Shown here: piece after piece, positions 3,402 to 62,500 of the stretch
Layout: the number at the start of each line of letters is the position of its first letter
Position numbering within the stretch: the first letter of the stretch is position 1
NCBI GenBank assembly: GCA_964016885.1
Contig: OZ024765.1
Location: 2,294,001-2,358,000, forward strand
DNA length: 64,000 bases
Reading direction: 5' to 3'
From: Eledone cirrhosa
Taxonomy: Eukaryota
Position numbers and translations under genes: made by a program
The notes under the pieces: generated by a model
The model's database searches: none
The model's input: the letters and a program-made list of their open reading frames with translations, nothing else
What the model was told of the DNA's origin: nothing

Positions 3402-3834
3402 ATGTCACTAAGCCCCAAGCACCATACTACACCTTTTAGCGTTACAGACATCTTAAGTCCCATTGAGGAAACTTATAAAAAAACCACCATCGAAGCTTCC
3501 ATACCGCCCTTGTCTTACAGAAATTCGCAACACCACCCCCAAGTTTCCGTCGGCGGCGGCGGAGGAATCGGCGGCGGCGGCGGTGGTGGTGGCGCAGCGT
3601 CCTCCGCCGCCGCCGTCACCGGGATGAGCGTGGCGGCGGCGGGTGGGGTCGGCGTCGGAGTCCAGGCGGCCTCATCAGCGGCGGCCTACCACCACAACTA
3701 CGTTCCGCCACTGTCGCACCACACGCCGTCCTTCACAACACAGTACTGTAATGGATCGGAGCTGGGTCACTATGGTGAAGCGAGACAAACTACACCTGGA
3801 TGGTACACTACCAACCCAGATCCTAGGTTTACAA
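3402..3834 (+). CDS. Nkx2-1: NK2.1 (Nkx2.1/TTF-1/scarecrow-type) homeobox gene, first coding exon (partial CDS)
   Basis: ATG at 3402 gives MSLSPKHHTTPFSVTDILSPIEETYKK, matching the Nkx2.1 N-terminus with the TN/eh1 motif. Later QYCNG and WYTTNPDPRFT match conserved Nkx2.1 blocks. Donor A|GTAAGT at 3834/3835 is phase 1, as in other Nkx2.1 genes. GC-rich island in AT-rich DNA. Confidence 0.9.
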
Positions 3835-3933
3835 GTAAGTATAATATAAAATAATTATATACACACAACACCACACAGCATACTGACATGGACACATATA
3901 CACACAACACACGTTTATATACACATCATATAT

Positions 3934-5129: not shown

Positions 5130-5360
5130 AAGCAAAATATTTTTATAACTGATATAAAGCACTCAACAAATTATTGGAGTAAATATATCCAGGAGACTCC
5201 AACTAGAATGGTTGTATTTTTTCAGGGTATGTCAATATTTATTTATAAAACTAACCTATTTTATATTTTATCTGATGAAAGCGCACCATAATTTGCCTTG
5301 GTGGCCCTTGAAATATGTATAATGAAACAAATATGGTTTTATAAATATAGTTTCCATTTG

Positions 5361-8316: not shown

Positions 8317-8578
8317 AAGGAAAATTCAACTAAGGTATGTTTTCTTGGCTATGTCAACATTTATAAAACACACTTTGTATTTTATCTGATGAAAGCGTAC
8401 CAAAGTGTTTTGGTACCCTTGAAATATATATAATAGAATAAATATGGTTTTATTAATATAGTTTCCATTTATTTAATATCATTGAATATTTACTCCAGAA
8501 AACTTGTCGAGTGCTCTGAATCAGTTATAAACATTTATATTTGTTGAATTTCCAACAAATTAAATATCCCTTCTACTT

Positions 8579-8699: not shown

Positions 8700-9430
8700 C
8701 GGATAGGTGTCCTCATCTTGTTTTGTTGTTAACACGTTTCGGCTGATGTACTCTTCAGCCTTCATCAGGTGTCCTAGTGATGTTATTATTAAGTTTTTGG
8801 GGGTTTTTTAAGGCTTATAAACTGATATTTTTCTATCCTTCCTCTACACCGGTTGCCATATACTACTCTTATCTGCACTAGGTCTGTTTGGGAGGTTATT
8901 GTCTCCTAGCATATGTGCTGCCGCTTTTAGTTTTCGTGTTTTCCAGTGGTGTTCTCTGTCTATTATTTTAACTTCATCCCACCGGGGAAGGTGGTCTCCG
9001 TTTTTTCCATACAAGATCAGCTATACCCGATTTATCGATCTCTCGTCGTGCTACAGCTTTACGATGTTCTTCTACCATTATTTTGTATAACCTACCACAA
9101 CTGCATGGGATGGAGTACACGCAGTCTTTGGTCGTATTCTCTTCTATTGGTGCTTCTACTCGAAGGAGATATTTGCGAAGTGTTGTATTACTCTTAAACA
9201 CTGCCCCGGTGTCATATGGACCGCATATCTTTTGTGTCTTTTCCGAGAGGCCTTTGGTCAATTTTGGGGTTTCAAAATTGACCCCAGACTGGGGTCAATT
9301 TTTGGCTTTCATCCTCTCTCTCCTTCCTAATTGGAGTGGATAGTATGTTTTTTGGATAGTTGTTACTTAACAAATTGTTACTTAGCTTGATCATTTCTTC
9401 GTGGTGTGTGAGGATCGCTACTTATATTCT
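8700..9430 (-). mobile_element. Penelope-like retroelement remnant (RT thumb/linker plus GIY-YIG endonuclease) with 3' hammerhead-like motif
   Basis: ORF 8974-9261(-) KGLSEK..KI....VFKSNTTLRKYL.RV.......CVYSIPCSCGRLY...EEH is typical of the PLE linker/GIY-YIG region, here decayed. Downstream at 8773-8731(-): ACAC-CTGATGA-A-GGCTGA/TCAGCC-GAAAC-GTGT. Confidence 0.8.
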
Positions 9431-11563: not shown

Positions 11564-12470
11564 CACAAGGTCCGGGGTTGTAACCCTACATTTGTCCCTG
11601 TAAATAGTTATTTCTGTAAAGTTACACAAGGTCCAGGGTTCTAACCCTGCATTTGTCCCTGTAAATAGTTATTTCTCAAAAGTTACACAAGGTCCAGGGT
11701 TCTAACCCTGCATTTGTCCCCGTAAATAGTTATTTCTCAAAAGTTACACAAGGTCCGGGGTTGTAACCCTACATTTGTCCCTGTAAATAGTTATTTCTCC
11801 AAAGTTACACAAGGTCCAGGGTTCTAACCCTACATTTGTCCCTGTAAATAGTTATTTCTCCAAAGTTACACAAGGTCCTGGGTTGTAACCCTACCTTAGT
11901 CCCTGTAAATAGTTATTTCTCTAAAGTTACACAAGGTCCAGGGTTCTAACCCTACATTTGTCCCTGTAAATAGTTATTTCTCCAAAGTTACACAAGGTCC
12001 AGGGTTCTAACCCTACATTTGTCCCTGTAAATAGTTATTTCTCAAAAGTTACACAAGGTCCGGGGTTGTAACCCTACATTTGTCCCTGTAAATAGTTATT
12101 TCTCAAAAGTTACACAAGGTCCTGGGTTCTAACCCTACATTTGTCCCTGTAAATAGTTATTTCTCCAAAGTTACACAAGGTCCTGGATTCTAACCCTAGA
12201 TGTGTCCCTGTAAATAGTTATTTCTCCAAAGTAACACAAGGTCCTGGGTTCTAACCCTACATTTGTCCCTGTAAATAGTCATTTCTGTAAAGTAACACAA
12301 GGTCCAGGGTTCTAACCCTACATTAGTCCCTGTAAATAGTTATTTCTGTAAAGTAACACAAGGTCCTGGATTCTAACCCTAGATGTGTCCCTGTAAATAG
12401 TTATTTCTGTAAAGTAACACAAGGTCCTCGAATCTAACTCTAGATTTGTCCCTGTAAATAGTTATTTCTC
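11564..12470. repeat. 61-bp tandem satellite, ~15 copies
   Basis: Unit CACAAGGTCCAGGGTTCTAACCCTACATTTGTCCCTGTAAATAGTTATTTCTCCAAAGTTA. Confidence 0.95.
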
Positions 12471-18700: not shown

Positions 18701-19231
18701 ATATTAGGTACAAGGTTCAATGAATAAATCAAAGAATGAGTTTTACAATAGATTGGAAGCACTCAAGTTTTGGTTTTCCGGAGTTATTAATATTAATTCA
18801 AAATATTAACAAAAATAAATATTATAGATATTTCAGAGGTACTGAGCTATCTTCAACAGTACGTCCTCATCAGATAAAATAAGATGATGCATGACATACC
18901 CTGACTTAGTAGATGGTTAAGATTCATTCATGGTAGTGAATATGATATGACAAGACTCAATATTTATATACCTTAAGATTGAGACATGAACAAACTTACA
19001 TATAATACAGAGGGTGCGTATTAGGTATATATATATTTATATATATACATAAATGTATATCTATATATATATTATATATTATATATATAAATATACACAT
19101 ATATATATATACTAATAATAATAAATGTGAAGACTAAAATCCGAAGAGGGCTCGATAAGGAGGAGCACGTTAAGGGTGAAAGCAGTGATTCTTTATCTGT
19201 TATTTTAATAAATATTTGCTCTACGGTTTTA

Positions 19232-20490: not shown

Positions 20491-22170
20491 TAAAGGCTTT
20501 ACCTCACATAATATCTCACATACCATTTACATTACTCTATATATACTATTGTATTTTCACAGTAAAGGCTTTACCTCACATAATATCTCACATAACATTT
20601 ACATTACTCTATATATACTATTGTATTTTCACAGTAAAGGCTTTACCTCACATAATATCTCACATACCATTTACATTACTCTATATATACTATTGTATTT
20701 TCACAGTAAAGGCTTTACCTCACATAATATCTCACATAACATTTACATTACTCTATATATACTATTGTATTTTCACAGTAAAGTCTTTACCTCACATAAT
20801 ATCTCACATAGCATTTACATTACTCTATATATACTATTGTATTTTCACAGTAAAGGCTTTACCTCACATAATATCTCACATACCATTTACATTACCCTAT
20901 ATATACTATTGTATTTTCACAGTAAAGTCTTTACCTCACATAATATCTCACATAGCATTTACATTACTCTATATATACTATTGTATTTTCACAGTAAAGG
21001 CTTTACCTCACATAATATCTCACATAACATTTACATTACTCTATATATACTATTGTATTTTCACAGTAAAGTCTTTACCTCACATAATATCTCACATAGC
21101 ATTTACATTACTCTATATTTACTATTGTATTTTCACAGTAAAGGCTTTACCTCACATAATATCTCACATAACATTTACATTACTCTATATATACTATTGT
21201 ATTTTCACAGTAAAGGCTTTACCTCACATAATATCTCACATAGCATTTACATTACTCTATATATACTATTGTATTTTCACAGTAAAGGCTTTATCTCACA
21301 TAATATCTCACATAACATTTACATTACTCTATATATACTATTGTATTTTCACAGTAAAGTCTTTACCTCACATAATATCTCACATAGCATTTACATTACT
21401 CTATATTTACTATTGTATTTTCACAGTAAGTACTTTACCTCACATAATATCTCACATAACATTTACATTACTCTATATATACTATTGTATTTTCACAGTA
21501 AAGTCTTTACCTCACATAATATCTCACATAGCATTTACATTACTCTATATTTACTATTGTATTTTCACAGTAAGTACTTTACCTCACATAATATCTCACA
21601 TAACATTTACATTACTCTATATATACTATTGTATTTTCACAGTAAAGGCTTTACCTCACATAATATCTCACATAACATTTACATTACTCTATATATACTA
21701 TTGTATTTTCACAGTAAAGGCTTTACCTCACATAATATCTCACATAACATTTACATTACTCTATATATACTATTGTATTTTCACAGTAAAGTCTTTACCT
21801 CACATAATATCTCACATAGCATTTACATTACTCTATATTTACTATTGTATTTTCACAGTAAAGGCTTTACCTCACATAATACCTCACATAACATTTACAT
21901 TACTCTATATATACTATTGTATTTTCACAGTAAAGGCTTTACCTCACATAATATCTCACATAACATTTACATTACTCTATATATACTATTGTATTTTCAC
22001 AGTAAAGGCTTTACCTCACATAATATCTCACATAACATTTACATTACTCTATATATACTATTGTATTTTCACAGTAAAGGCTTTACCTCACATAATATCT
22101 CACATAACATTTACATTACTCTATATATACTATTGTATTTTCATGGTAAAGGCTTTATCACGCATAATAT
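20491..22170. repeat. 72-bp tandem satellite, ~23 copies
   Basis: 24-codon periodicity (KALPHIISHITFTLLYIYYCIFTV) in the ORF track. Printed lines recur every 360 bp. Confidence 0.95.
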
Positions 22171-22442
22171 CGAATCTACGAGATTTTGATATTATCTATT
22201 TTGAGAATAATACCTTAACACCGGTATAGGTAGACAGTCACTGTTGGGATGAACAGAAAGTGGTGAGAGAATTCTGGCCGAAATGGCAGGTTTAAATGCT
22301 AAAGGATTAAACTTTAGTGAAAATCTATATTGATGGACGTATGGGCCATATAAAACATGGTAGAAAGATCAATATATGAGAATGATTGCTTAATTTTTTT
22401 TAATTTAATTTTCTCACTTAAATTTGATATGCAATATTATAT

Positions 22443-22562: not shown

Positions 22563-22826
22563 GGTGAAAAATGGAACGGAAACGAAACAGAGAGGCAACG
22601 AAGAGCTCTGCCGTCGGGGTCATACATTTTCCTATAAATATATATATATGTATTATTCAAAATGTTAATAAATGAAAAATATTCTCATAATCAAAATATA
22701 TATTTTATTATACACATTTCAAAGGTACAATGGTGTTTAAGTACGTTTTCATCAGACAAAATATATGATTTGATATGTGACATAGCGCTACGGTATTGAT
22801 TATTCAATTCCAGTATTAATCTTTGG

Positions 22827-28680: not shown

Positions 28681-28835
28681 CTCTTTTACCTGCTCCAGCC
28701 ATCTGGCTAAGGCCGTGCTGGGGCACCGCCCTATTAGCAGCTTGCTTTCCCAACCGGTCACCCATCAAAGTACCAGCTAGGCTCGACGTTGCTTAACTTC
28801 GCTGATCGGACGAGTTACGGCCATATCACGCTGAA

Positions 28836-28839
<4 letters not shown>
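28681..28839 (-). pseudogene. 5S rRNA-derived retrocopy with inverted 5' end, fused to a CR1-LINE 3' tail
   Basis: - strand 28814-28730 reads CTCGTCCGATCAGCGAAGTTAAGCAACG...GATGGGTGACCG..TGGGAA (5S internal control region). + strand 28814-28839 GTTACGGCCATATCACGCTGAAAACA is the 5S 5' end. 28730-28681(-) matches the LINE tail at 26378-26428. Confidence 0.8.
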
Positions 28840-28894
<55 letters not shown>

Positions 28895-31077: not shown

Positions 31078-31500
31078 ATATTAATTCAAAATATTAACAA
31101 AAATAGATATTCTTGTGATCAAGTATATTTTATTATAGATATTTCAGAGGTACTGAGATATCTTCAACAGTACGTCCTCATCTGATAAAATAAGATGATG
31201 TATGACATACCCTGACATAGTAGATGGTTAAGATCCAGTCATTGTAGTTATGACTGGATCTTAACCATCTACTAAGTCAGGGTATGTCATGCATCATCTT
31301 ATTTTATCTGACGAGGACGTACTGTTGAAGATATCTCAGTACCTCTGAAATATCTATAATAAAATATACTTGATCACAAGAATATCTATTTTGTTAATAT
31401 TTTGAATTAATATTAATAACTCCGGAAAACCAATAATGTTGAGTGCTTCCAATCTATTGTAAAACTAATTCGTTGACTTATTCATTGAACCTTGTTTAAT
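31078..31500 (+). mobile_element. Family D fold-back element (~165-bp arms), hammerhead at 31301-31365
   Basis: Arms 31078-31242 and 31250-31413. ATTTTAT-CTGACGA-GGACGTACTG..CAGTACCTCT-GAAA-TATCTA-TA-ATAAAAT. Confidence 0.8.
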
Positions 31501-33772: not shown

Positions 33773-34250
33773 ATATATATATATATATATAGTACCAGTT
33801 TAGTACTGGGGTGGAGTCTTCCTCTATATCTCTTTCTCATATCTCTCTATATCCCTCTCTCACTTTCTATCTTTCTCTGGAAGAAATCTGCTGTACTGAA
33901 GCCTGGAGAGGGAGGGGCTCCGCCGGGCTTAAGATGTCCAAGAAACACTGTATATCTATACACCGCCTCTATGACTCTATCAGGAGTTACGTGACCATAC
34001 ATACATACATGGTAATACACTGTTGTTACGGTAACAGTGATGTTATGTAGAAACATTCATAAAACTAATTTTCCTCTGACGAGAAGACATAAATCTCCAA
34101 AATGCAACATGATTATCTCCTAAGAGTTTCCTGTGTACAGACGTGTTTATACTTCAATATTTACGCGGCAAAGATATTTAAAACGAAAATTAATTGTTGT
34201 ATCTACTTTAAATTTAGCTTACATTTTCTTGTATACCATTATAATATTAA

Positions 34251-34302
<52 letters not shown>

Positions 34303-34612
34303 AGAGAGAGAGCTGCATGCGTGTATATATACATATATGTCTATATATGTGTATATATATGTATCTATCTATATACATATATGTATATATATATATATGT
34401 ATGTATATCTATTTATATATATATATGTATGTATGTATGTATGTACATATATTTATATATATATATATGTATGTATATATATATGTGTGTATATATATAT
34501 GTATGTATGTATATATATATGTGTGTGTATGTGTATGTGCAGTATATATATATATATATATATACAGTTTTATACTGTATATGTGCTATGTACATTTGCG
34601 GATGTACGTCTG

Positions 34613-34644
<32 letters not shown>

Positions 34645-34649
34645 TATAC

Positions 34650-34726
<77 letters not shown>

Positions 34727-34733
34727 TATATAC

Positions 34734-34830
<97 letters not shown>

Positions 34831-34847
34831 CATATATATATATATAA

Positions 34848-35096
<249 letters not shown>

Positions 35097-35499
35097 TGGA
35101 CGTCAAACACACACATACACACATGTACACACGTATATATATAATTACATGTTTTTGCTGTCAGTTGTGTCAACACTCGAGTAAGTTTGATATAGTACAA
35201 TCCCTCGCTCGTCGCTCATTACTAGATCAGTCAACACTAAAAAAAATCTTATGTGGTATTACATGAAATATAATGCCTATGGTTCCCCCTGCCCCACTCC
35301 CCCTGCCCCACGCAGCCTGGCTAGACTCTGGCCATGCTGGGGCACTGCTTTGATTTACTCACGGCGTTTATAAACTGATTTTTTTAAAAATAAATATTAT
35401 ACATATATATATGTATATATATATATATGTATGTATATATATATATATATATATAAATATAAATATATATATGTATATATATACAAATATATATATATG

Positions 35500-35531
<32 letters not shown>

Positions 35532-35573
35532 TATATAAATATAAATATATATATGTATATATATATATATGTA

Positions 35574-35661
<88 letters not shown>

Positions 35662-35664
<3 letters not shown>

Positions 35665-36184
35665 GCCAAGGTTTCTTGGTGAGGAGGGTGACTTTGGACA
35701 TCCTGCAGGACTAAAAACAAAACCTGTCAAAGGGCAAAGGAGCTCTTAAGAGTCAATGGCCATCCAAAATCACTGGGAGAGATGACCCCTTAGCCTTTGT
35801 CAAGGCAGAATTATAGAAGGAAAACTCTGATATAACACCTGCAACCCTAATGGTATCCAATGATGTTGACTTGTTCTTCTTTTTGGTAAATATTATCTTG
35901 GTTAAGAGAGTGGGACTGGCTTTGTGCAGTACCTTTGCTCACTATAAAAGCTTCACGGCACAGGCATTGCTTTATATCTGGAGATCTCTCTGCACTTGTC
36001 GTCACATGGTGCCATGGGCCCAGCACTATGTGTCAGTAATTGTCACAAGTGTAGTGTTTGTACCAGAGTTTTCAAGTCGCTGGCTGGACTAAAAAGCCAC
36101 ACTCGCTCGTTCAGCGCATCGGTAGGGGTTCTCCTACATGGATATAAAGTAGTGGCCGTACTCGAAAACGAGTTGGCAGCCACC
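35662..36184 (+). mobile_element. Short RTE-like LINE derivative (5'-UTR-like part joined to C-terminal zinc knuckle)
   Basis: HKCSVCTRVFKSLAGLKSHTRS resembles the RTE ORF terminal C2H2 finger. The upstream GAAGGAAAACTCTGA motif is RTE-5'-like. Flanked by (TA)n. Confidence 0.5.
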
Positions 36185-36293
36185 ATATATATATAGTGAA
36201 AAATTGAACGGGAACAAAACAGAGAGGCAGTACGAACAAAGGTTTATTAGTTTCACGCGCTTGAGTATATAGATATATATATTTATATATATT

Positions 36294-36398
<105 letters not shown>

Positions 36399-36462
36399 AT
36401 GTAAAAGGTAAACAGAAATAACAACACAATCGGTACAGAGAGATAGACAGACAGACAGATAA

Positions 36463-36497
<35 letters not shown>

Positions 36498-36756
36498 GCT
36501 ATTGTCATTGAATTAACGAAATCGAACAACTCTAGAAATATACCATTTATAATAATCTCTCATACGTGATGCGTTTTATTGAACTCTTATTAAATCGATC
36601 AATGTTCAATGCCAGTTCATAAACTTCGATTAGTTCTCATGTAAAAGAAAATCAATCAAGATTCCTAACCATAAATTAACACAGCAGTTTTTATTCTGAT
36701 ACACTATGTTCAATATATTCAGCACCATCTTTAATAAATTTGACCCCTCCTCCTTC

Positions 36757-36793
<37 letters not shown>

Positions 36794-36926
36794 TTCCAAC
36801 ATGGACGATTCATTGGGGAACCAGAGACCTTCATATCTCACAGTTAGAAATGACATCTTGTCAGAGTCCGGCCTAGTAACATTTTCATCACCGCGATAAT
36901 TTGCTCATGCTTTCTAGAGTAATTTT

Positions 36927-37029
<103 letters not shown>

Positions 37030-37194
37030 ATATTGAGAAACACACAGATACATGCGGACACACACATATACATGAATATATCCACATCCATCCTTGAGTT
37101 AATGGTGCCAACCTTAACCGATGTTGCTCTATGAATAACTGGGACAAACCAATCCGAATGGATTAGACTGAACCAGTATCAGAGCTAAAAGCAC

Positions 37195-37567
37195 ATTATG
37201 AAGAGAGAAGAAACATTTAGATATAATTAGTAATAAGATGTATCATACCTAAACTGCTTCTAGATTCCTCGACTACGTAGTTTCGTGGCATAAACAAAAA
37301 CAATACATCATAGAGATATAGAGCCTTTGCGAGGTCTGCCGACTTATCAAGAGGATACCTCGTTATACTAGCCTCAAGAGCACGTCTATATGATGTGAGA
37401 TAGAATCCCAAAAGGCGGAGGGGGAGACAGTCACGTGATACAACGGTCAAGAAACAGAGCTAAGCCCCTTATAACCCCGAAAAAAATACCACAATCTCAC
37501 AATCTAGAAGCAGTTTAGGTATGATACATCTTATTACTAATTATATCTAAATGTTTCTTCTCTCTTC

Positions 37568-37572
<5 letters not shown>
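37195..37572. mobile_element. 72-bp inverted repeat enclosing a decayed hammerhead
   Basis: Arms 37195-37266 and 37501-37572. - strand 37354-37267: CCTC-TTGATAA-GTCGGCA..TGCCAC-GAAA-CTACGTAG-TC-GAGG. Confidence 0.65.
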
Positions 37573-37613
<41 letters not shown>

Positions 37614-37828
37614 AAGATCGGAATTAAGAGTATTCCGCAGTTCACTGTAATAATAATAATAGTATTAGCTCAAAGAAGAAATAGAGAATTTCCTTCTGAG
37701 CTCAAATGCAAGTATATATTACACAAAGAGAAGTGTGTTACACAGTGAGATGTGTGTAAAGAATTATTACGAGTGTTTTTACCGTTACTGACTCACTGTG
37801 TAACACACTTCTCTTTGTGTAATATATA

Positions 37829-37892
<64 letters not shown>

Positions 37893-37960
37893 ATAAATTT
37901 GAAGATCCCGTTAAGGGTGAAAGCAGCGATTCTTTGCTTAAACTTTAATCTGTTATTTTA

Positions 37961-38029
<69 letters not shown>

Positions 38030-38284
38030 ACCACTATTATAGACACCATATATATTTCCGTGGGTACCTAGTACCTACTGGGATATCTATATCATTTATC
38101 TAATTCTCCTTAATGTAGAGAAAAAAAAATGGTGTATCATGCTGCTATTTCTAGCAGCATGAAATATCAGCGAGTCTATAATTCCCTGCTATTTCTAACG
38201 GTCCAATAAGTGTGTGGGTCATTTTAACAGCTTGATTCATTCACTGGGCAGAGGGTGATATATTTACATCTATACGGACTTATG

Positions 38285-38388
38285 TCTAGTAGATTTGGAA
38301 AAGCTATCTGAAGAGCTATATCTTTCCATTGGAAATTCTCTGAATTTCCAATCTTTTGATAAGCGAAACCGTCGGTCATGGCACTAGA
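38285..38388 (+). ncRNA. Canonical type I hammerhead ribozyme with extended stems
   Basis: Stem I GCTAT/ATGGC (extended by TCTAGT/ACTAGA), CTGAAGA 38308-38314, stem II GCT...ATTGGAAATTC-tct-GAATTTCCAAT...AGC, GAAA 38365, stem III CCG-t-CGG, GTC cleavage triplet ending 38377. Confidence 0.8.
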
Positions 38389-38452
38389 AGAGGTAAATAT
38401 TTAAATCGTATTTTAATTTATTTAAAAGATTGTTTAATGTTTACTTGTTCCG

Positions 38453-38563
<111 letters not shown>

Positions 38564-39395
38564 GTATATATTATTCAAAATATTAACAAATGAAAAATAT
38601 TCTCATAATCAAAATATATATTTTATTACAACAATATGACCCTCCCCAAGTGTAACTATATTTTATTATATATATTTCAAAGGTACTGTGTTGTTGCTTT
38701 TCAGTACGTCCTCATCAGACAAAATATATGATTTGATATATGACATACCGCTACGGTCTTGAATATTGAATTCCAGTATTGGCACTGATTTATTTCATCA
38801 AATCTGGAGTATAAATAATATAACATCAAAAGATGATTAAAAGACTTCCATGTATTTTATTATGCGCATTTCAAAAACATTATTTTATTTTTTATATGTT
38901 GATTTAACACTTCACTGCTCGCAAGTGTTTTTTAAGCTTCATACCATGTCTCCCTATTTTATCTGATGAGAACGCAAATATCATCCCATGATGATATTTG
39001 TTTTTGAAATGCGCATAATAAAATACATGGAACTCTTAACTATCTTTTGATTTTATATTATATATATATATACTGCCAAAACTGGAATGAATCATCAGCA
39101 CAGTTGTGGTATGTCAGACATCAATTTATTTTATCTGAGGAGGACGTACTGATGAAACAGTTCAGTACCTCTGAAATATATATAATAAAATATATTTGAT
39201 CACACGAATGTCTATATTTATTAATATTTTGAAATAATATATATATGTATATATATAGAAGTAGAAACACAACAATTAGTTCACCATACAGAGAACAATT
39301 CTTCTCTGTACGGTGAACTAACTGTTGTGTAACCACTTCTACCTAACTCGTCCCATGGACTGAGTGCTCTACCACTACGGATATTACCTTCCAGT

Positions 39396-39475
<80 letters not shown>

Positions 39476-39476
<1 letters not shown>

Positions 39477-39671
39477 GTTATTCCGGGTTGAATCGGAGGT
39501 AACCACAGTAAGTAAGGTACTCAATACATAGCAGAGTATAACAGTTTTAATATAGATGAGATTCTACAGGACTAGAACTGTTTCATTCATTAGAAATCAT
39601 CAGGAATCAGATTCCTGATGATTTCTAATGAATGAAACAGTTCTAGTCCTGTAGAATCTCATCTATATTAA

Positions 39672-39675
<4 letters not shown>
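39476..39675 (-). mobile_element. Family A element, perfect 66-bp-arm palindrome with intact hammerheads on both strands
   Basis: Arms 39543-39608 and 39610-39675. GATTC-CTGATGA-TTTCtaatGAAT-GAAA-CAGttctagtcCTG-TA-GAATC. Confidence 0.85.
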
Positions 39676-39718
<43 letters not shown>

Positions 39719-39721
39719 TAC

Positions 39722-39935
39722 ATGCTCACTGACATCCAGAGTGTTGACACTGCACTCAGTGCTCCTGTGGGAGCCCCTACTCGGACACACTAGAAGAGGG
39801 AGACCGAGGTTGACGTATGTTGATGCCCTAAGGACAGACACTGGTCTCTTGGAGATGCAGGACATGGCAGCGATAATGAGGGACAGCGACTGCTGGAGAG
39901 AACTCGTCCATGGATCTCGGGAATTTTAACCACCC
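39722..39935 (+). mobile_element. RTE-clade LINE ORF C-terminal fragment
   Basis: VLLWEP..G..RRGRPRLTYVDALRTDTGL....M....RD...WRELV is a typical RTE-group C-terminus. Confidence 0.7.
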
Positions 39936-40035
39936 TATATATATATATATATAGTGAACAACACAATATATAATTACTCCATTAGCAAAGGTTTCAGGAC
40001 CCTAGACAATATTAACATACGTCTAGTCCGCTCAT

Positions 40036-40176
<141 letters not shown>

Positions 40177-40458
40177 CATATTTCATCCTGGACTCGAAGC
40201 TGGTCAGCCAAACAGACAACAACTGGCCTTCACCGCCTTCGAGTTAAAAACATTTCTCTCTGTTTTTTTTTTAGCCTCTTGGATTGTGTTTACCATTATT
40301 CCTTTATTATATAACTTTTATGCAATAAACACCTGAAGATGTCACCAGGATCTTACGGAACTTGGCCACTGAAATGTACATAGTTTTTGCTATAATAAAT
40401 CTTTGAAGGAATTTCACCAGTCCGGCCTCCTGTCATTTTACTCAATATATATATATAC

Positions 40459-40592
<134 letters not shown>

Positions 40593-40712
40593 GACGTAAA
40601 ATAAGAAAATTATAAAAATTAACTTACTTACTAACATTTCACTCCAACTAATTAGTTTCTGAAAGGGAATAAACATGGTTTCCAAATGGAAAGCATGGAG
40701 AAGCCATTTCGT

Positions 40713-40810
<98 letters not shown>

Positions 40811-41009
40811 TGTATATATATATATATATATGTGTGTGTGTATATATATATATACATATATATATATACATATGCCCCTGGATTTTCGACCAATGGATAT
40901 TACTAACAATTGGAAAGACGAATGGAAAAATTGTTTCCTCGGTCCAATTTGACGAGTTTCACGCCAGTCATTAAGCGACTGTCGGTATATAAATATCTGT
41001 GTGTGTATG

Positions 41010-41162
41010 TGTGGTCTTCGGCATAGTTTCTGTCTACCAAATTTCCCTCACTATGCATTGCTCAACTAGAGGCTATAGTAAAAGACACTAATCCAAGGAA
41101 CCACGCTGTGAGACAACCAAAAACCCCATAGTTCAATGACAACTACTCAACCACGCAGCTAT
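41010..41162 (-). mobile_element. Decayed octopus-type tRNA-SINE (second family)
   Basis: TTTCTGTCTACCAAAT...GAGGCTATAGTAAAAGACACT..CCAAGG..CCACGC resembles an abundant octopus SINE. Recognised from memory, not searched. Confidence 0.5.
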
Positions 41163-41175
41163 GATTGCATGTATG

Positions 41176-41239
<64 letters not shown>

Positions 41240-41244
<5 letters not shown>

Positions 41245-41833
41245 ATAATAATAAATTTGAAGACTAAAATCCAAAGAGGGCTCGATAAGGATAAATATAT
41301 ATTTTTATGTGTGTTTGGTGTATACGTTCGTATGTGTGAGGTTGCGTGGGTTCTGTATGTGCGTGCGTGTTTTTTTTTTTTTGTTTTTTTTGTACGTGCT
41401 TGTATTTGCATACCCATGGCGAGTGTTTTCGCCGCGTATGCTTGTGTATATGGATGGATGCGTGTATGTATATATTTAGTTTCAACTACCTCTGCATTTT
41501 ATTTACTTTATTCTTAACTCTGAAGCCGAGAATCATTCGGTTTCCTAAATAGAATATTAGTCTACGACTTCATTTATACCATAAACGTGGTTTTGTCTTT
41601 GCGTGTAATTGTTTGCACCGCACCAAATAATGACGTATTATCTCCGGGTTTTTTTTAGTCCATTGCCAGGAACGTCTCCACGAACCAAAGTGTCGTCTTC
41701 CTGTCCTCCTTCGGTTGCAACGTTTTTTGAAATATTTACTTCTGCGTTCACAGATTGACTTTTTTAACTTCAGAAGATCCCGTTAAGGGTGAAAACAGCG
41801 ATTCTTTGCTTAAACTTTAATCTGTTATTTTAA

Positions 41834-41836
<3 letters not shown>
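41240..41836 (+). mobile_element. Family F element, longest copy
   Basis: Ends TAGTAATAATAAATTTGAAGACTAAAATCC... and ...GGGTGAAA.CAGCGATTCTTTGCTTAAACTTTAATCTGTTA recur as deleted copies at 143-195, 19110-19215, 26776-26825, 32218-32310 and 37888-37965. Confidence 0.65.
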
Positions 41837-41870
<34 letters not shown>

Positions 41871-41929
41871 TATGTTATATATACATATTTATACGCATAC
41901 ATGTATGTATGTATGTATGTATGTATGTA

Positions 41930-41973
<44 letters not shown>

Positions 41974-42114
41974 TACATACATACACACATATATATACAT
42001 ACGTATATATATGTATATATATGTGTATATATATATATATATATATTTATTTATTATATTATATATACATATATATACATACATATATATAATATACATA
42101 CACATATATGTGTG

Positions 42115-42153
<39 letters not shown>

Positions 42154-42195
42154 TGTATTATATATGTGTATGTATTTGTGTACACACACACAATG

Positions 42196-42268
<73 letters not shown>

Positions 42269-42682
42269 CACAAAAGAAAATATACTAAACGTGCAGAATG
42301 ACAATTGCTTCTTCGTATATAAAAACTTACAATTGAAATGAGATAGCTTGCAGCTATTTGCTAAGTGTCTTTCATAGCGTCGATTAAGAAATAGAGAGAT
42401 GTCGTGTTATTTAAATGTGTGTAAGATATTGTTGCTTCAATCAACCATTCATAATTATGAAGCAAGAATTACGAAGAGTGTCTACAGGAACTAAACCATT
42501 TCTGAACATTTACTTAATCCGTTCCCATCTTGAATTTATCAATAATTTCACTGTAACATAGCCTGCAGTGTGCAGTGTATATTTCATTGTAAACTAAACT
42601 ATCATGTAGATAAAATTATAGCATATGGTTCATATATATATATATATGTGTGTGTATGTGTATATGTATATATATACACATA

Positions 42683-42713
<31 letters not shown>

Positions 42714-42730
42714 GTGTGTATATATATATA

Positions 42731-42816
<86 letters not shown>

Positions 42817-43035
42817 GATATAGGGTATGTAATAAACAACATAGGACAATTATTCCATTTACCAAAGGTTTCACGAAGCCAGATGTCTGAAATCGCTCAT
42901 CAAAATGAAAAATGTAATATGCATAGTAAATGTTTCCTTCTGATGAGCGATTTCAGACGTGTCTTTATGAATGTAGTTTACAGAGAGCACTCTCCTTTCC
43001 TTTACCCCTTCTACGGAAATAATTCATATAGATAT

Positions 43036-43223
43036 GAAAAAGTATGACCCCGACGGCAGAGCTCAAGCCGTTTCGACGGCTATTTCTGTCCAGAAATAGC
43101 CGTCGAAACGGCTTGAGCTCTGCCGTCGGGGTCATACTTTTTCCTATTTCCCACTCTACTACCCTAAGTATTGAGTACTTTGGTGCGTTATGGTCCACCT
43201 GGTCCCTTACCACATTTCCTTTG

Positions 43224-43226
<3 letters not shown>
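43036..43226 (+). mobile_element. Family B fold-back element
   Basis: Palindrome centred near 43088 plus family B tail. Confidence 0.8.
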
Positions 43227-43274
<48 letters not shown>

Positions 43275-43734
43275 TACATATATATGTGTGTGTGTGTGTG
43301 TGTGTATATGCTTTCATTCTGAGCGTAGGTGAGAGAAAGCAGACGAACTGTAACGACAGTGAAATAAGGTATTGAAGAAGATGTGAGATGATACGATTTT
43401 TCTGAATCTTGAGTTAGTGTTGTCACTAATTAAAGCTAGCACACACTGACGAAGTGTAACAACACTGAAATACGATATTAACGTAGCTGTGCCATAACTT
43501 TCTAAATAACATTTTGTTAGTGTTGTCGGTGATTAAAACTAGAACATACTGACGAAGTTTAACAACACTGAAATACGAGACAGCTTTCTAAATAACGTTT
43601 TATTAGTGCTGTCACTGATTAAAGTTAGTAGTCACTGACAGGGTGTAACAGTACTGAAATACGGTATTAAGACAGCTGTGACATAACAGCTTTCCCGAAT
43701 CATGTTGTGTTATAAAGCATAGTAATAATAATAA

Positions 43735-44021
43735 TTGTTTTCTACTTTAGGCACATTACCCCAGTTCGTTACTGGATTTGAACTCATAATGTAAAGGGCC
43801 GTAACTCTATGCGTCAAAGCATGGCGTCCGACCCTCTACCGATACTGCCAATCCAAATAATAATAATATAATTATTTCTACTTTTGGCACATGGCCAGCA
43901 ATTATTCCAGTGTATTACTGGTACTTTATTTTATCGACCCCTTAAGGATGAAAGGCAAAGTTAACCTTGACGGGATTTGAACTCAGACCGTAAAGAGCCG
44001 TAACTCTATGCTGCAAAGCAT
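43735..44021 (-). mobile_element. Two octopus-type tRNA-SINE copies
   Basis: TTTATCGACCCC..AAGGATGAAAGGCAAAGTTAACCT.GACGGGATTTGAACTCAGA, with a B-box on the - strand. Confidence 0.75.
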
Positions 44022-44776
44022 GTATGATAGTTGGTTAGTTAGATATAAATATTTCAAACTATTCATCACCATATTTGAAATGAGGCTGACCAATGTCCAA
44101 TTAACTGGGGGCCATTATTGCCACGCCCTGCTCATACTGCGTCTCTCTCTCTCTCTCGCTCTCTCTCTCTTTTCTCCTTCTTCCTCTGTCCCCCCCACCC
44201 CCCCCACCTAGCTCTGTCTCTCTCTCTTCCCCTTCTTTCTCTCTGTGCTCTCTCTCTCTCTCTCCCCTCTCTCCGTCTCTATCTGACTCCCTCCTCTTTC
44301 TCCCCATCACTCCCTCTCTCGGTCTGTGCCCACTCTCTCTCTCTCTAACTCCCTCCTGTCTCCTCCCCATCAATTTATCTCTCCCCATCACTCTCTCTCT
44401 CTCGGTCTGTCCCCCATCTCTCTCTAACTCCCTCCTGTCCCCTCCCCCATCACTCCCTCTCTCTGTCTCTCTAACTCCCTCCTGTCCCCTCCCCATCACT
44501 CCCTCTCTGTCTCTTTAACTCCCTCCTGTCCCCTCCTCATCACTCCCTCTCTCTCTCTATATAACCCCCTCCTGTCCCCCCCCCCCCCCATCTCTCTCTC
44601 GGTGGAAAGAACCAATAACATTCTAGAAACAAAACACGGGGTTCCCCTACTCAGCGTTCTTCTGCCAGTGTTGTCTCTGACTGCCACTAGAGGCACTGAA
44701 TGGCTGCCGTCATGGCTTAGGTGATCACAGCTTCATATTGGTTGTGGCTGTTGTAGCGAAACAGGCATATATACAC

Positions 44777-44810
<34 letters not shown>

Positions 44811-44868
44811 ATCTGTGTATATGTGTATAATATGTCCTAAAATAAATACATACACATATATATGTATG

Positions 44869-44913
<45 letters not shown>

Positions 44914-45054
44914 TTATTTTATGATAAAATATTTTTTTATTTTATGATAAAATAAAAAAAATTTTTACTCTGCCATGTATTGAGTACCTTACTTACTGTG
45001 GTTATCCCCGACTCAACCCGGGACCTACGTATATATATATATAGATATATTAAG

Positions 45055-45268
45055 AGAAAGTATGACTCCGACGGCAGAGCTCAAGCCGTTTCGACGGTTA
45101 TTTCTGGACTAAAATGCTAAAATGACTTTAGTCCAGAAATAGCTGTCGAAACGGCTTGAGCTCTGCCGTCGGGGTCATACTTTCTCCTACTACCCACTCT
45201 ACTACCCTAAGTATTGAGTACTCTGGTGCGTTATGGTCCATCTGGTTCCTTACCACAATTCCTTCGCT
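45055..45268 (+). mobile_element. Family B fold-back element
   Basis: Inverted arms around the TAAAATG spacer plus tail. Preceded by a family A tail at 44945-45030. Confidence 0.8.
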
Positions 45269-45332
45269 ATATATATATATTATATATATATATATATATA
45301 TATTCACAGAGAGAGAGAATTTCAAATTATAT

Positions 45333-45461
<129 letters not shown>

Positions 45462-45806
45462 GTATATATATATATATATATATATAAATATATATGTATA
45501 TATATATATATATACATATATAGGGAGAGGTGTAATACATCAATTATTATATATAGAACAAAGCACTCACTCACCCCAATATATATATACGCATATAAGT
45601 ATGCAATTATATATAAGTACATACATAAAAACATAAACACACATACATATATATGTGAATGTATTTATACACACACACGCACATATATATATACACACAC
45701 ACACACATACATACACAAAACACGTATGTATATTCCTTAAGATATAGATGTATTGCCTAAAGCAATATATAAAAATATATTTATATATATATAAGTATAT
45801 TTATAA

Positions 45807-45860
<54 letters not shown>

Positions 45861-46185
45861 AACAGACACACTCACATATATGTATATACATGTGTATATA
45901 TATATATGTGTGTGTGTGTATATGTGTGATTGTGTGTTCAATAACCAATAACTAATAAGATGAAGCAATACTTTTTTCTCACGTGAGAAAAAATATTCCG
46001 TCTTACACGTAAAGAATATTCTTTTATCATTATCGACCTTCTTCAATATCGATCATTGTCAATATCGATCAGAATTTTATTTTATTTTTATTTTTATTTT
46101 TATTTTTGCCATGGAAACAACAACTCCCACCAGAAACATTGAACGCACCATTTTTTAAAATTATTATTATCATTATTATTATTAA

Positions 46186-46352
46186 GACTGTGGTGGATTG
46201 TCAGAATCGGGAGAGCAACGGACACCATGCTTTGCCGCATAGTGTTATGACCCTTTACTGTCTGGGTTTAAATCTCTCCGAGGTTAGCTTTACTGTTCTT
46301 CCTTACGAGGTAGAGAAAATAAAGTACCAGTCACGCACTGGGGTCAATTTAA
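46186..46352 (+). mobile_element. Diverged octopus-type tRNA-SINE
   Basis: Similar to 61743-61942. Runs directly into the minisatellite. Confidence 0.6.
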
Positions 46353-49300
46353 CCATCAACACTACAACCATTACCTCCACCGCCACCACTAGCAACAACA
46401 CCACCACCACCACCATCAACACTACAACCATTACCTCCACCGCCACCACTAACAACACGACCACCACCACCACCATCAACACTACAACCATTACCTCCAC
46501 CGCCACCACCACCACCATAAACACTACAACCATTACCTCCACCGCCACCACTAACAACAACACCACAACCATCAACACTACAACCATTACCTCCACCGCC
46601 ACCACCACCACCATCAACACTACAACCATTACCTCCACCGCCACCACAACCATCAACACTACAACCATTACCTCCACCGCCACCACCACCACCATCAACA
46701 CTACAACCATTACCTCCACCGCCACCACTAACAACAACACCACCATCAACACTACAACCATTACCTCCACCGGCACCACTAACAACAACAACACCACCAC
46801 CACAACCATCAACACTACAACCATTACCTCCACCGCCACCACCACCACCATCAACACTACAACCATTACCTCCACCGCCACCACTAACAACAACAACACC
46901 ACCACCACCACCATCAACACTACAACCATTACCTCCACCGCCACCACTAACAACAACAACACCACCACCACCACCATCAACACTACAACCATTACCCCCA
47001 CCGCCACCACTAACAACAACAACAACAACAACACCACCATCAACACTACAACCATTACCCCCACCGCCACCACTAACAACAACAACACCACCACCACCAC
47101 CATCAACACTACAACCATTACCTCCACCGCCACCACTAACAACAACAACACCACCACCACCACCATCAACACTACAACCATTACCTCCACCGCCACCACT
47201 AACAACAACAACACCACCACCACCACCACCATCAACACTACAACCATTACCTCCACCGCCACCACTAACAACAACAACACCACCACCACCACCACCATCA
47301 ACACTACAACCATTACCTCCACCGCCACCACTAACAACAACAACACCACCACCACCACCACCATCAACACTACAACCATTACCTCCACCGCCACCACTAA
47401 CAACAACAACACCACCACCACCACCACCATCAACACTACAACCATTACCCCCACCGCCACCACTAACAACAACAACAACAACAACACCACCATCAACACT
47501 ACAACCATTACCCCCACCGCCACCACTAACAACAACAACAACAACAACACCACCATCAACACTACAACCATTACCTCCACCGCCACCACTAACAACAACA
47601 ACACCACCACCACCACCATCAACACTACAACCATTACCCCCACCGCCACCACTAACAACAACAACAACAACAACACCACCATCAACACTACAACCATTAC
47701 CCCCACCGCCACCACTAACAACACCACCACCACCAACCATCAACACTACAACCATTACCCCCACCACCACCACTAACAACACCACCACCACCACCATCAA
47801 CACTACAACCATTACCCCCACCGCCACCACTAACAACACCACCACCACCACCATCAACACTACAACCATTACCCCCACCGCCACCACTAACAACAACAAC
47901 AACACCACCACCATCAACACTACAACCATTACCCCCACCGCCACCACTAACAACAACAACAACAACAACACCACCATCAACACTACAACCATTACCCCCA
48001 CCGCCACCACTAACAACAACAACAACACCACCACCATCAACACTACAACCATTACCCCCACCGCCCACCACTAACAACAACACCACCACCACCACCACCA
48101 TCAACACTACAACCATTACCCCCACCGCCACCACTAACAACAACAACAACAACAACACCACCATCAACACTACAACCATTACCCCCACCGCCACCACTAA
48201 CAACAACAACAACACCACCACCATCAACACTACAACCATTACCTCCACCGCCACCACTAACAACAACAACAACCAACAACACCACCATCAACACTACAAC
48301 CATTACCCCCACCGCCACCACTAACAACAACAACACCACCACCACCACCATCAACACTACAACCATTACCTCCACCGCCACCACTAACAACAACAACAAC
48401 AACAACACCACCATCAACACTACAACCATTACCCCCACCGCCACCACTAACAACAACAACAACACCACCACCATCAACACTACAACCATTACCTCCACCG
48501 CCACCACTAACAACAACAACACCACCACCACCACCATCAACACTACAACCATTACCTCCACCGCCACCACTAACAACAACAACAACAACAACACCACCAT
48601 CAACACTACAACCATTACCTCCACCGCCACCACTAACAACAACAACACCACCACACCACCATCAACACTACAACCATTACCTCCACCGCCACCACTAACA
48701 ACACCACCACCACCACCACCATCAACACTAACAACCATTACCCCCACCGCCACCACTAACAACAACAACACCACCCACCACCACCATCAACACTACAACC
48801 ATTACCTCCACCGCCACCACTAACAACACCACCACCACCACCCATCAACACTACAACCATTACCCCCACCGCCACCACTAACAACAACAACACCACCACC
48901 ACCACCATCAACACTACAACCATTACCTCCACCGCCACCACTAACAACACCACCACCACCACCATCAACACTACAACCATTACCTCCACCGCCACCACTA
49001 ACAACACCACCACCACCACCATCAACACTACAACCATTACCTCCACCGCCACCACTAACAACAACACCACCACCACCACCACCATCAACACTACAACCAT
49101 TACCTCCACCGCCACCACTAACAACAACAACAACAACACCACCACCATCAACACTACAACCATTACCTCCACTGCCACCACTAACAACAACAACACCACC
49201 ACCACCATCAACACTACAACCATTACCTCCACCGCCACCACTAACAACACCACCACCACCACCACCATCAACACTACAACCATTACCCCCACCGCCACCA

Positions 49301-51322
49301 CTAACAACATCAACAACCACCACCACCACCAATCAACACTACAACCATTACCTCCCACTGCCCACCACTAACAACACCACCACCACCACCATCAACACTA
49401 CAACCATTTACCCCACCGCCACCATAACAACAACAACACCACCACCACCACCATCAACACTACAACCATTACCTCCACCGCCACCACTAACAACACCACC
49501 ACCACCACCATCAACACTACAACCATTACCTCCACCGCCACCACTAACAACACCACCACCACCACCATCAACACTAACAACCATTACCTCCACCGCCACC
49601 ACTAACAACAACACCACCACCACCACCACCATCAACACTACAACCATTACCTCCACCGCCACCACTAACAACAACAACAACAACACCACCACCATCAACA
49701 CTACAACCATTACCTCCACCGCCACCACTAACAACACCACCACCACCACCATCAACACTACAACCATTACCTCCAACCGCCACCACTAACAACAACCACC
49801 ACCACCACCCCAACCCCAACAACACCACACCACCATCAACACTACACCTTACCTCACCCCGCCACCACTAACAACAACAACACCACACCACCACCATCAA
49901 CACTACAACCATTACCTCCACCGCCACCACTAACAACAACAACAACACCACCACCACCATCAACACTACAACCATTACCTCCACCGCCACCACTAACAAC
50001 AACACCACCACCACCACCATCAACACTACAACCATTACCTCCACTGCCACCACTAACAAACAACAACACCACCACCACCATCAACACTACAAACCATTAC
50101 CTCCACCTGCCCACCACTAACAACAACAACACCACCACCACCCATCAAACACTACAACCATTACCTCCACCGCCACCACTAACAACAACAACACCACCAC
50201 CACCACCATCAACACTACAACCATTACCTCCACCGCCACCACTAACAACAACAACACCACCACCACCACCATCAACACTACAACCATTACCTCCACCGCC
50301 ACCACTAACAAACAACAACAACAACACCACCACCATCCATCAACACTACAACCATTACCTCCACCGCCACCACTAACAACAACAAACACCACCACCACCA
50401 CCATCAACACTACAACCATTACCTCCACCGCCACCACTAACAACAACAACACACCACCACCACCATCAACACTACAACCATTACCTCCACCGCCACCACT
50501 AACAACAACAACAACACCACCACCACCACCATCAACACTACAACCATTACCTCCACCGCCACCACTAACAACAACAACACCACCACCACCACCATCAACA
50601 CTACAACCATTACCTCCACCGCCACCACTAACAACAACAACAACACCACCACCACCACCATCAACACTACAACCATTACCTCCACCGCCACCACTAACAA
50701 CAACAACACCACCACCACCACCATCAACACTACAACCATTACCTCCACCGCCACCACTAACACAACAACAACACCACCACCACCCACCATCAACACTACA
50801 ACCATTACCTCCACCGCCACCACTAACAACAACAACAACCCACCAACCACCACCATCAACACTACAACCATTACCTCCACCGCCACCACTAACAACAACA
50901 ACACACCACCACCACCACCATCAAACACTACAACCATTACCTCCACCGCACCCACTAACAACAACAACAACCACCACCACCACCATCAACACTACAACCA
51001 TTACCTCCACCGCCACCACTAACAACAACAACAACACCACCACCACCATCAACACTACAACCATTACCTCCAACCCGCCACCACTAACAACAACAACACC
51101 ACCACCACCACCATCAACACTACAACCATTACCTCCACCGCCACCATAACAACAACAACAACACCACCACCACAAACCATCAACACTACAACCATTACCT
51201 CCACCGCCACCAACTAACAACAACAACAACAACAACAACACCACCACCACAACCATCAACACTACAACCATTACCTCCACCGCCACCACTATCAACAACA
51301 ACAAACACCACAACCACAACCA
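46353..51322. repeat. ~5-kb ACC/AAC-rich minisatellite (ACCATCAACACTACAACCATTACCTCCACCGCCACCACT(AAC)n(ACC)n)
   Basis: Constant ~39-bp core with variable triplet spacers. Ends at the gap. Confidence 0.95.
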
Positions 51323-51522
51323 NNNNNNNNNNNNNNNNNNNNNNNNNNNNNNNNNNNNNNNNNNNNNNNNNNNNNNNNNNNNNNNNNNNNNNNNNNNNNN
51401 NNNNNNNNNNNNNNNNNNNNNNNNNNNNNNNNNNNNNNNNNNNNNNNNNNNNNNNNNNNNNNNNNNNNNNNNNNNNNNNNNNNNNNNNNNNNNNNNNNNN
51501 NNNNNNNNNNNNNNNNNNNNNN
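51323..51522. other. Assembly gap (200 N)
   Basis: Run of N. Confidence 1.
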
Positions 51523-62145: not shown

Positions 62146-62399
62146 TACACAAATCGACTCTGGTTACAGTTATTTCTTGCGTATGGCACTTCTATATTTA
62201 CAAAAATTATATATACACAGGCTGGAGATAGAATGCGTAACAGCAAGGACTGTGCTCCAGCATGACCTCAGCCGGATGGCTGGAACAGGTAAAAAAGGTA
62301 AAAGAGTATGTATATGTGTGTGAGTGTGTGTGTGTGTGTTAAGTATTTCCGTAGAAGAAATAAAGGAAAGAACAGTGCTCTATGTGTAGTAGAGAGGTA

Positions 62400-62469
62400 T
62401 TTCATCTGATGAACGGGCCAGCCGTTTCTGTAAGGATCGTCTAGTTTCCTGAAACCTTTGGTAATGGAA
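62400..62469 (+). ncRNA. Hammerhead core within family I element (62340-62503)
   Basis: TTTCAT-CTGATGA-..-GAAA-CCtttGG-TA-ATGGAA. Relative at 42912-42850(-) with stem II GCGA/TCGT. Confidence 0.6.
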
Positions 62470-62500
62470 TAATTATATTGTGTTGTTTATTATGTAATTA

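Follow-up and report, generated by a model that had tools for sequence, protein, structure and literature searches.

The DNA examined here, hereafter called the window, is a stretch of 64,000 nucleotides from Eledone cirrhosa (assembly GCA_964016885.1, contig OZ024765.1, positions 2,294,001 to 2,358,000 of the forward strand), which harbors the first coding exon of Nkx2.1 and, further downstream on the same strand, a hammerhead motif embedded in a truncated repeat copy between two (TA)n tracts. The relevant features are as follows, in window coordinates.

3402..3834, +, coding exon 1 of Nkx2.1 (TTF-1-like), followed by a phase-1 GT donor at 3835-3836
37961..38027, no strand, (TA)n tract, left part of the target site
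38027..38456, +, single-armed, 5'-truncated copy of a putative non-LTR retrozyme monomer of 465-467 nt (monomer positions 38-465), ending at the main fixed 3' end of the family, CCGCTCA/TATA
38285..38302, +, 5' strand of the stem I extension (38285-38290) and loop-1 bulge with TGGAAA (38296-38301), candidate partner in a loop1-loop2 pseudoknot
38303..38382, +, predicted type I hammerhead ribozyme, cleavage predicted after C38377
38308..38314, +, core C3-A9, CUGAAGA
38315..38364, +, stem II: 3 bp, a bulged A, 4 bp, an internal loop TTTCCA (38323-38328) and a 10-bp distal hairpin (38329-38351)
38365..38377, +, GAAA, self-complementary stem III ACCG-U-CGGU and GUC cleavage triplet
38456..38571, no strand, (TA)n tract, right part of the target site
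51323..51522, no strand, scaffold gap at the right end of a 106-kb contig whose orientation relative to Nkx2.1 exons 2-4 is probably wrong

The Nkx2.1 locus and the hammerhead motif

Exon 1 of Nkx2.1 is single copy and shares 72% identity with the TTF-1-like protein of Octopus vulgaris. Exons 2-4 are absent from the window and the next 100 kb; the minus strand carries them at C26:2,164,782-2,160,351, which is 130 kb left of exon 1 and across a scaffold gap. Gaps at C26:2,238,821 and 2,345,323 bracket the contig that carries both exon 1 and the hammerhead, and the exon 1 donor and the exon 2 acceptor join in phase, yielding the same residues as in O. vulgaris. The 106-kb contig in question (C26:2,239,021-2,345,322) is probably mis-oriented with respect to exons 2-4. 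A search for a sequence bridge supporting the inversion found none, the left contig end being single-copy. The unplaced contig C502 duplicates window 33833-51317 including the insertion and extends beyond the gap by 11 kb of sequence that the neighbouring scaffold lacks, and this continuation has a unique match to neither neighbouring scaffold part; because the duplicate carries the same insertion, no empty allele is seen.

Given the proposed inversion, the hammerhead copy very probably lies in intron 1 of Nkx2.1 on the sense strand, and its location downstream of the exon 1 donor within the same ungapped contig bears out the sense-strand placement made in an earlier note on this DNA. If the gene is intact, the motif would sit 34.5 kb into an intron of at least 121 kb. 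Nkx2.1 is likely mis-annotated in the assembly, being split over the mis-oriented scaffold join. On the Nkx2.1 sense strand, the units of a minisatellite at 20491-22171 (72 bp, 23 copies at 96%) each end in TTTTCACAG, similar to the genuine acceptor of exon 2, which makes them possible decoy 3' splice sites.

The motif forms a three-way junction with an open stem I and the CUGAnGA/GAAA/NUH core of type I hammerheads. Core positions follow the hammerhead numbering scheme. Stem I consists of GCTAT (38303-38307) paired with ATGGC (38378-38382), including one U.G pair, G10.1-C11.1 lies at 38315/38364, GAAA occupies 38365-38368, stem III ACCG-T-CGGT spans 38368-38376, and the GUC triplet ends at 38377, so that every core nucleotide listed in the earlier note (CUGAAGA, G10.1-C11.1, GAAA, GUC) is present. 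Beyond a 12-nt bulge (38291-38302), stem I is extended by 6 bp (38285-38290/38383-38388). The bulge had been described as complementary to TTTCC in stem II, and TGGAAA at 38296-38301 does indeed match TTTCCA at 38323-38328. The hammerhead is beyond chance expectation, since a strict type I descriptor matched six times in the window but not once in any of 60 block-wise dinucleotide shuffles.

The hammerhead models of Rfam gave no match at E<=10 in the 406-nt region 38050-38455, no hammerhead appeared among the best 150 of 422 Rfam matches in the window, and none reached the gathering score in five loci. The miss is probably due to the 50-nt stem II, and a match to an Rfam model is not a defining biochemical feature of hammerheads. 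The hammerhead fold lies about 4.9 kcal/mol above the MFE (-21.7 versus -26.6, energies that leave out pseudoknots), and in the MFE fold the CUGA core is paired with UCGG of stem III, while the pair probability of stem I in the isolated motif is about 0.13, pseudoknots again being left out. The stem III stretch is self-complementary, with a cofold energy of -11.3 kcal/mol, as expected for the dimeric cleavage described in the available text of PMC7229834.

The window contains a variety of further repeats. Minimal Penelope-type hammerheads, with an AT-rich stem I and a palindromic TATATA/TGCGCA stem III, occur on the plus strand at 5266-5327, 8378-8440, 31300-31366, 38955-39025 and 39127-39192, and on the minus strand at 18820-18876, 22698-22766 and 38657-38728; the stretches 38654-38879 and 38999-39197 are arranged as an inverted pair with a similarity of about 76%. 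Beyond the scaffold gap, another family contributes a second type I hammerhead that looks complete (about 62398-62470, plus strand), with stem III CCUUUGG and a GUA site. The end of another TA-targeting repeat, found at several loci and carrying the apparent 3' half of a different hammerhead, occupies 37901-37960. A Penelope-type GIY-YIG endonuclease fragment at 8977-9294 (minus strand) has 42 genome matches, some with RT upstream. Also present are a 61-bp minisatellite of 15 copies (11564-12470), a 5-kb ACC-rich satellite with 60-63 bp units (46352-51322) that runs into the scaffold gap, a 5S rRNA-like match at 28732-28842 (minus strand; 35.6 bits, under the gathering score of 38) that is possibly a 5S-derived repeat, and a single C2H2 zinc-finger-like stretch at 35948-36193 (plus strand), below the Pfam cut-off.

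A repeat family carrying the ribozyme

The motif had been regarded as single copy, which is true of the window and of the 313 kb around it but not of the genome, where the core 25-mer has 156 exact copies (control, 0). Searching the 3.0-Gb genome with 38200-38440 returned 2,142 candidates, of which the 40 that were scored yielded 44 matches of 97-100% identity on many chromosomes. The head-to-tail junction occurs exactly 89 times and defines a monomer of 465-467 nt, which also builds an array of about 29 units over 13.3 kb (C3:162,363,033-162,376,336); these units are 8.2% apart and show a recurring internal deletion. With a superfamily pattern there were 1,649 matches, compared with 43 for its control, and of the first 30 loci 26 could be aligned to the monomer. 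Among its relatives is a sister family of 457/467 nt, 69% identical to the window family and with 309 exact matches, which forms near-identical arrays with strand inversions and a homogeneity of 99-100%. One sister-family insertion (C1:156,425,761-156,438,460), in which 19 matches on one strand at a spacing of about 457 nt stand back to back with 9 on the other, is very young, the sampled units differing by 0-3 nt. A third-family pattern built from loose ends gave 0 matches, and a metagenome scan with the superfamily core likewise gave 0. Subfamily variants and the tandem joint were present in genomic-looking contigs from three sequencing runs (one sample, one study), from which the assembly may have been built.

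The first 37 nt of the monomer are missing from the window copy, which departs from the family majority at four positions (about 1%), none of them in the ribozyme, a divergence that argues for a young insertion. The median divergence in its subfamily is 1.8%, and the copy is a young, ordinary family member. No ORF of at least 70 codons passing the complexity filter was found over 38027-38456, and the insertion maps described below show a unit with neither LTR nor ORF. The two families have monomer units with a GC content of 0.335 and 0.352, and natural units of both, folded as circles, reach z values of about -6 relative to 40 shuffles. A tandem non-coding unit of a few hundred nucleotides, one type I hammerhead per unit and dispersed multi-copy insertions without LTRs are the hallmarks by which the element is, on sequence criteria, a metazoan non-LTR retrozyme. 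Among the papers listed by a literature search there was none on a cephalopod retrozyme, and the supplements of PMC7229834 and of a 2026 preprint (bioRxiv 10.64898/2026.07.22.740005) could list cephalopod repeats.

Conservation of the ribozyme was assessed over 130 distinct motifs parsed from the collected loci. Base pairs in stem I are exchanged for one another (A-U/G-C in 95/26 and U.G/U-A in 94/31 motifs), as are pairs in stem II (C-G/U-A in 109/11 and U-A/C-G in 112/15). The pair 10.1-11.1 is G-C in 101 motifs and U.U in 18, the latter in sister subfamilies, and the cleavage triplet is GUC in 105 and GUA in 23. Over 21 aligned relatives, pairing amounts to 96.2% in stem I, 96% in stem III, 98% in the distal hairpin and 75% in stem II. 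The earlier description of stem I as 5 bp plus a 6-bp extension holds for the window copy, in which both are present, but the extension is subfamily-specific: with 57.9% of cells paired, it was ruled out as a family-wide helix. The covariation score of the 21 relatives exceeded all 500 shuffles, which, the sequences being related, does not translate into a probability; stems I and II vary on both sides, and stem III is nearly invariant and hence uninformative on covariation.

An intact core was found in 113 of 142 dispersed segments covering the motif, a sample partly selected on the core, and in 17 of 27 array units. The divergence of the core (1.9%) and of the remaining sequence (2.5%) comes from the same selected sample, so this comparison is set aside. 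At the level of the family, the ribozyme is maintained. Since compensatory changes distinguish the subfamilies in stems I and II, the window motif, a complete type I hammerhead, is a plausible active ribozyme. Both TGGAAA and TTTCCA are retained in 103 of the 130 motifs, compensatory change being absent, and the bases next to GGAAA in loop 1 and to TTTCCA in the stem II loop vary, whereas these two stretches persist; this fits a candidate loop-loop pseudoknot, for which a second TGGAAA/TTTCCA pair in the distal hairpin permits alternative registers. The available text of PMC3088659 describes such pseudoknots in the human C10 motif and in about 40% of hammerheads.

Insertion geometry and copying

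Insertion maps were drawn for 120 loci, picked by window similarity, exact junction or exact core, with 8 duplicate or overlapping loci dropped. Among their 161 arms, monomer position ~465 is the end point of 107 and ~108-118 that of 37, the other 17 ending elsewhere. The two fixed 3' ends, separated by about 107 nt, do not coincide with the cleavage site (monomer position 386) but fall about 80 and 190 nt 3' of it, so the template ran uninterrupted through the cut. In sister subfamilies the arms end at the two homologous sites. Head-to-head, two-armed insertions use one of each fixed end in 30 of 37 cases, and in 7 of 8 among junction-unselected loci, and TA repeats flank 44/48 and 43/48 of the junction-unselected loci on the two sides. 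The 5' ends do not clearly pile up at the cleavage site: of 135, the bin 381-400 holds 13, the bin after it another 13 and the bin 181-200 holds 14, so these ends give no evidence for a cleaved linear template.

Private variants are common to the units of one insertion, both in direct pairs (5 versus 0.25 expected, 57 pairs) and in inverted pairs (5 versus 0.46 expected, 59 pairs); these counts are small, and homogeneous array transcripts or local gene conversion are alternative sources. On the ribozyme strand of the young subfamily, 70 A>G changes stand against 40 T>C (nominal p 2.5e-4, the copies not being independent), an excess which may reflect ADAR editing and which is absent from the older subfamily (63 versus 59). 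Taken together, the private variants, the 8.2% divergence of the array and the A>G excess favour, but do not prove, the view that the units of one insertion were copied repeatedly from one RNA, probably circular, that had been exposed to editing.

The insertions look Penelope-made: they lie in TA targets, have truncated 5' ends and inverted arms, and finish at two fixed points on the 3' side. Remnants of Penelope-type RT/GIY-YIG are present in the genome (RVT_1 at E 1e-6, just below the cut-off). No autonomous partner with sequence in common with the retrozyme family emerged from 12 PLE loci (one PLE family): their termini showed no meaningful similarity to it, the comparison giving one AT-rich 50-nt match.

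The following cycle can be envisaged. Multimeric transcripts would self-cleave at GUC or GUA, aided by a stem III dimer form and by the loop1-loop2 pseudoknot, and the cleaved monomers would be ligated into circles. A Penelope-like RT/GIY-YIG enzyme would nick (TA)n DNA, and each DNA end would prime cDNA at a fixed site of its own, about 80 nt 3' of the cut in one case and 190 nt in the other, after which the RT would read across the cut site and round the template. In its most specific form, which we put forward tentatively and at a little less than even odds, the Penelope enzyme opens the (TA)n tract and copies one circular, partly A-to-I-edited RNA repeatedly, both DNA ends serving as primers at two conserved sites that are separated by about 107 nt, while the ribozyme would act as a switch that is silent as a monomer, its core paired with stem III, and armed by the loop1-loop2 pseudoknot or by dimer formation.

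Other templates and other origins have to be weighed against this proposal. Long, linear, uncleaved array transcripts could be the source of the copies, in which case there would be no circular intermediate and the ribozyme would be slow or vestigial. Sister-family arrays that are 99-100% homogeneous could account for the shared private variants, the hammerhead fold is not the MFE fold, and U.U at 10.1-11.1 is tolerated in sister subfamilies (18/130). Against this stand the only long array of the window family, whose units are too diverse to template matching units, and the compensatory changes that have kept stems I and II across subfamilies 69-85% identical; moreover, in coral, mussel and axolotl the related retrozymes undergo cleavage and form circles (PMC7229834, available text). 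We regard copying from linear transcripts as unlikely, and it would bear on the mechanism only, restoring no role in the host. A further possibility, though a very unlikely one, is that the repeat is no free-standing retrozyme but the pseudo-LTR, solo or in tandem, of an autonomous Penelope-like element, the ORF-bearing copies of which escaped detection. Partial tandems, an inverted 5'-truncated arm, a tail and a TA bias are all described for PLEs (Craig et al. 2021, 10.1101/2021.04.23.441226, available text), and retrozymes have been proposed to derive from pLTRs (bioRxiv 10.64898/2026.07.22.740005, available text). Yet in the 120 locus maps arms longer than one unit run into another monomer and not into coding sequence, most unselected loci are TA-flanked on both sides, pure arrays of the monomer occur, and the search against the PLE termini also argues against such an origin.

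Proposed host role and comparison with known systems

Our main reading, to which we assign a probability of roughly 0.86, is that the motif represents the ribozyme common to a young family of non-coding retrozyme repeats, and that the present copy is a truncated (TA)n insertion, likely in intron 1 of Nkx2.1 and likely a neutral passenger. Having a single ribozyme, the copy cannot release a monomer. Within Nkx2.1 pre-mRNA no more than one cut would be expected from it, probably a slow one, as from the remaining sense motifs of the intron, and splicing would likely tolerate such a cut. In mammalian tests, splicing stayed efficient despite cleavage by an intronic hammerhead, unlike with a faster ribozyme, which blocked it (both second-hand in the available text of PMC2995048).

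The earlier note had proposed cleavage of Nkx2.1 pre-mRNA by analogy with the intronic hammerheads of amniotes. The idea of a ribozyme domesticated by the host, whose co-transcriptional cleavage would tune Nkx2.1 mRNA, or of a first step towards this state, could draw on the sense orientation downstream of the exon 1 donor in an ungapped contig, on the intact core, on the insertion being present in both assembled versions of the region, and on the view that amniote intronic hammerheads are retroelement-derived (PMC6155905, available text). The ribozyme is nevertheless identical to the family majority in a copy about 1% diverged, which gives no sign of selection or age, and an intact core is common among the dispersed segments, partly selected on the core as these are. 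The putative intron contains 14 hammerhead-like motifs, that is, 13 besides this one, with 7 sense and 7 antisense (two antisense ones weak) and hence no strand bias, and 32 occur in 313 kb. The earlier note had itself named high copy number without syntenic conservation as evidence against a host function, and the high copy number is found genome-wide. Domestication is thus highly improbable in our estimation, the window copy is most likely a passenger and not an Nkx2.1 regulator, and Nkx2.1 regulation deserves little weight for a motif that is a recent repeat insertion among many.

The closest relatives in organization are the metazoan non-LTR retrozymes of coral, mussel and axolotl (Cervera and de la Pena 2020, PMC7229834; bioRxiv 10.64898/2026.07.22.740005; see also PMC7761336), for which the available texts describe, as in the window family, a low-GC non-coding monomer (33-35% GC here) with one type I hammerhead, an occurrence as monomers, partial dimers and long head-to-tail arrays, a highly self-paired predicted circle and a short self-complementary stem III. 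The axolotl HHR_Amex2 has U.U at the base of stem II, as does the sister family, and X. tropicalis retrozymes include many intronic solo copies (44% intronic) resembling the window copy, the proportion for Xenopus being 42-44% in the preprint. The window monomer is slightly above the invertebrate range of 170-400 nt given in 2020 and within the range of 51-972 given in 2026. What distinguishes the window family is a long stem II, the internal loop of which could bind loop 1 through 5-6 Watson-Crick pairs, and, relative to the available texts of the retrozyme papers, two fixed 3' ends about 107 nt apart and two-armed insertions are extra features here. Coral, mussel and axolotl retrozymes have been seen as cleaved, circular RNA (PMC7229834), whereas the window family is known from DNA alone; only one of nine predicted Xenopus dimers cleaved in vitro (bioRxiv 10.64898/2026.07.22.740005), and predicted activity is therefore uncertain.

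The available text on EN+ PLE clades (Craig et al. 2021) reports 5' truncation, partial tandems, an inverted 5' arm, a one-sided tail, a (TA)n bias and a hammerhead near the 3' end, all as in the window family. The latter differs in the absence of an ORF, in a tail offset of about 107 nt against 30-40 bp in PLEs, and in a full hammerhead with stem III, PLEs having the minimal pLTR form that other elements in the window carry. The amniote RECK and C10orf118 hammerheads (PMC3088659, PMC6155905, available texts) are type I, intronic and sense to the host gene, as is the window motif given the proposed inversion, and the 5-bp loop pseudoknot of the C10 ribozyme (PMC3088659) resembles the candidate one here. 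These domesticated motifs are, however, isolated, belong to no multi-copy family and are conserved across mammals or amniotes, whereas the window motif belongs, unmodified, to a young family numbering hundreds of copies and has its retroelement body still attached; the analogy with amniotes is not supported. The family is a natural substrate both for the step of Penelope transposition from which tandems, inversions and tails originate, and for the proposed copying of retrozyme circles.
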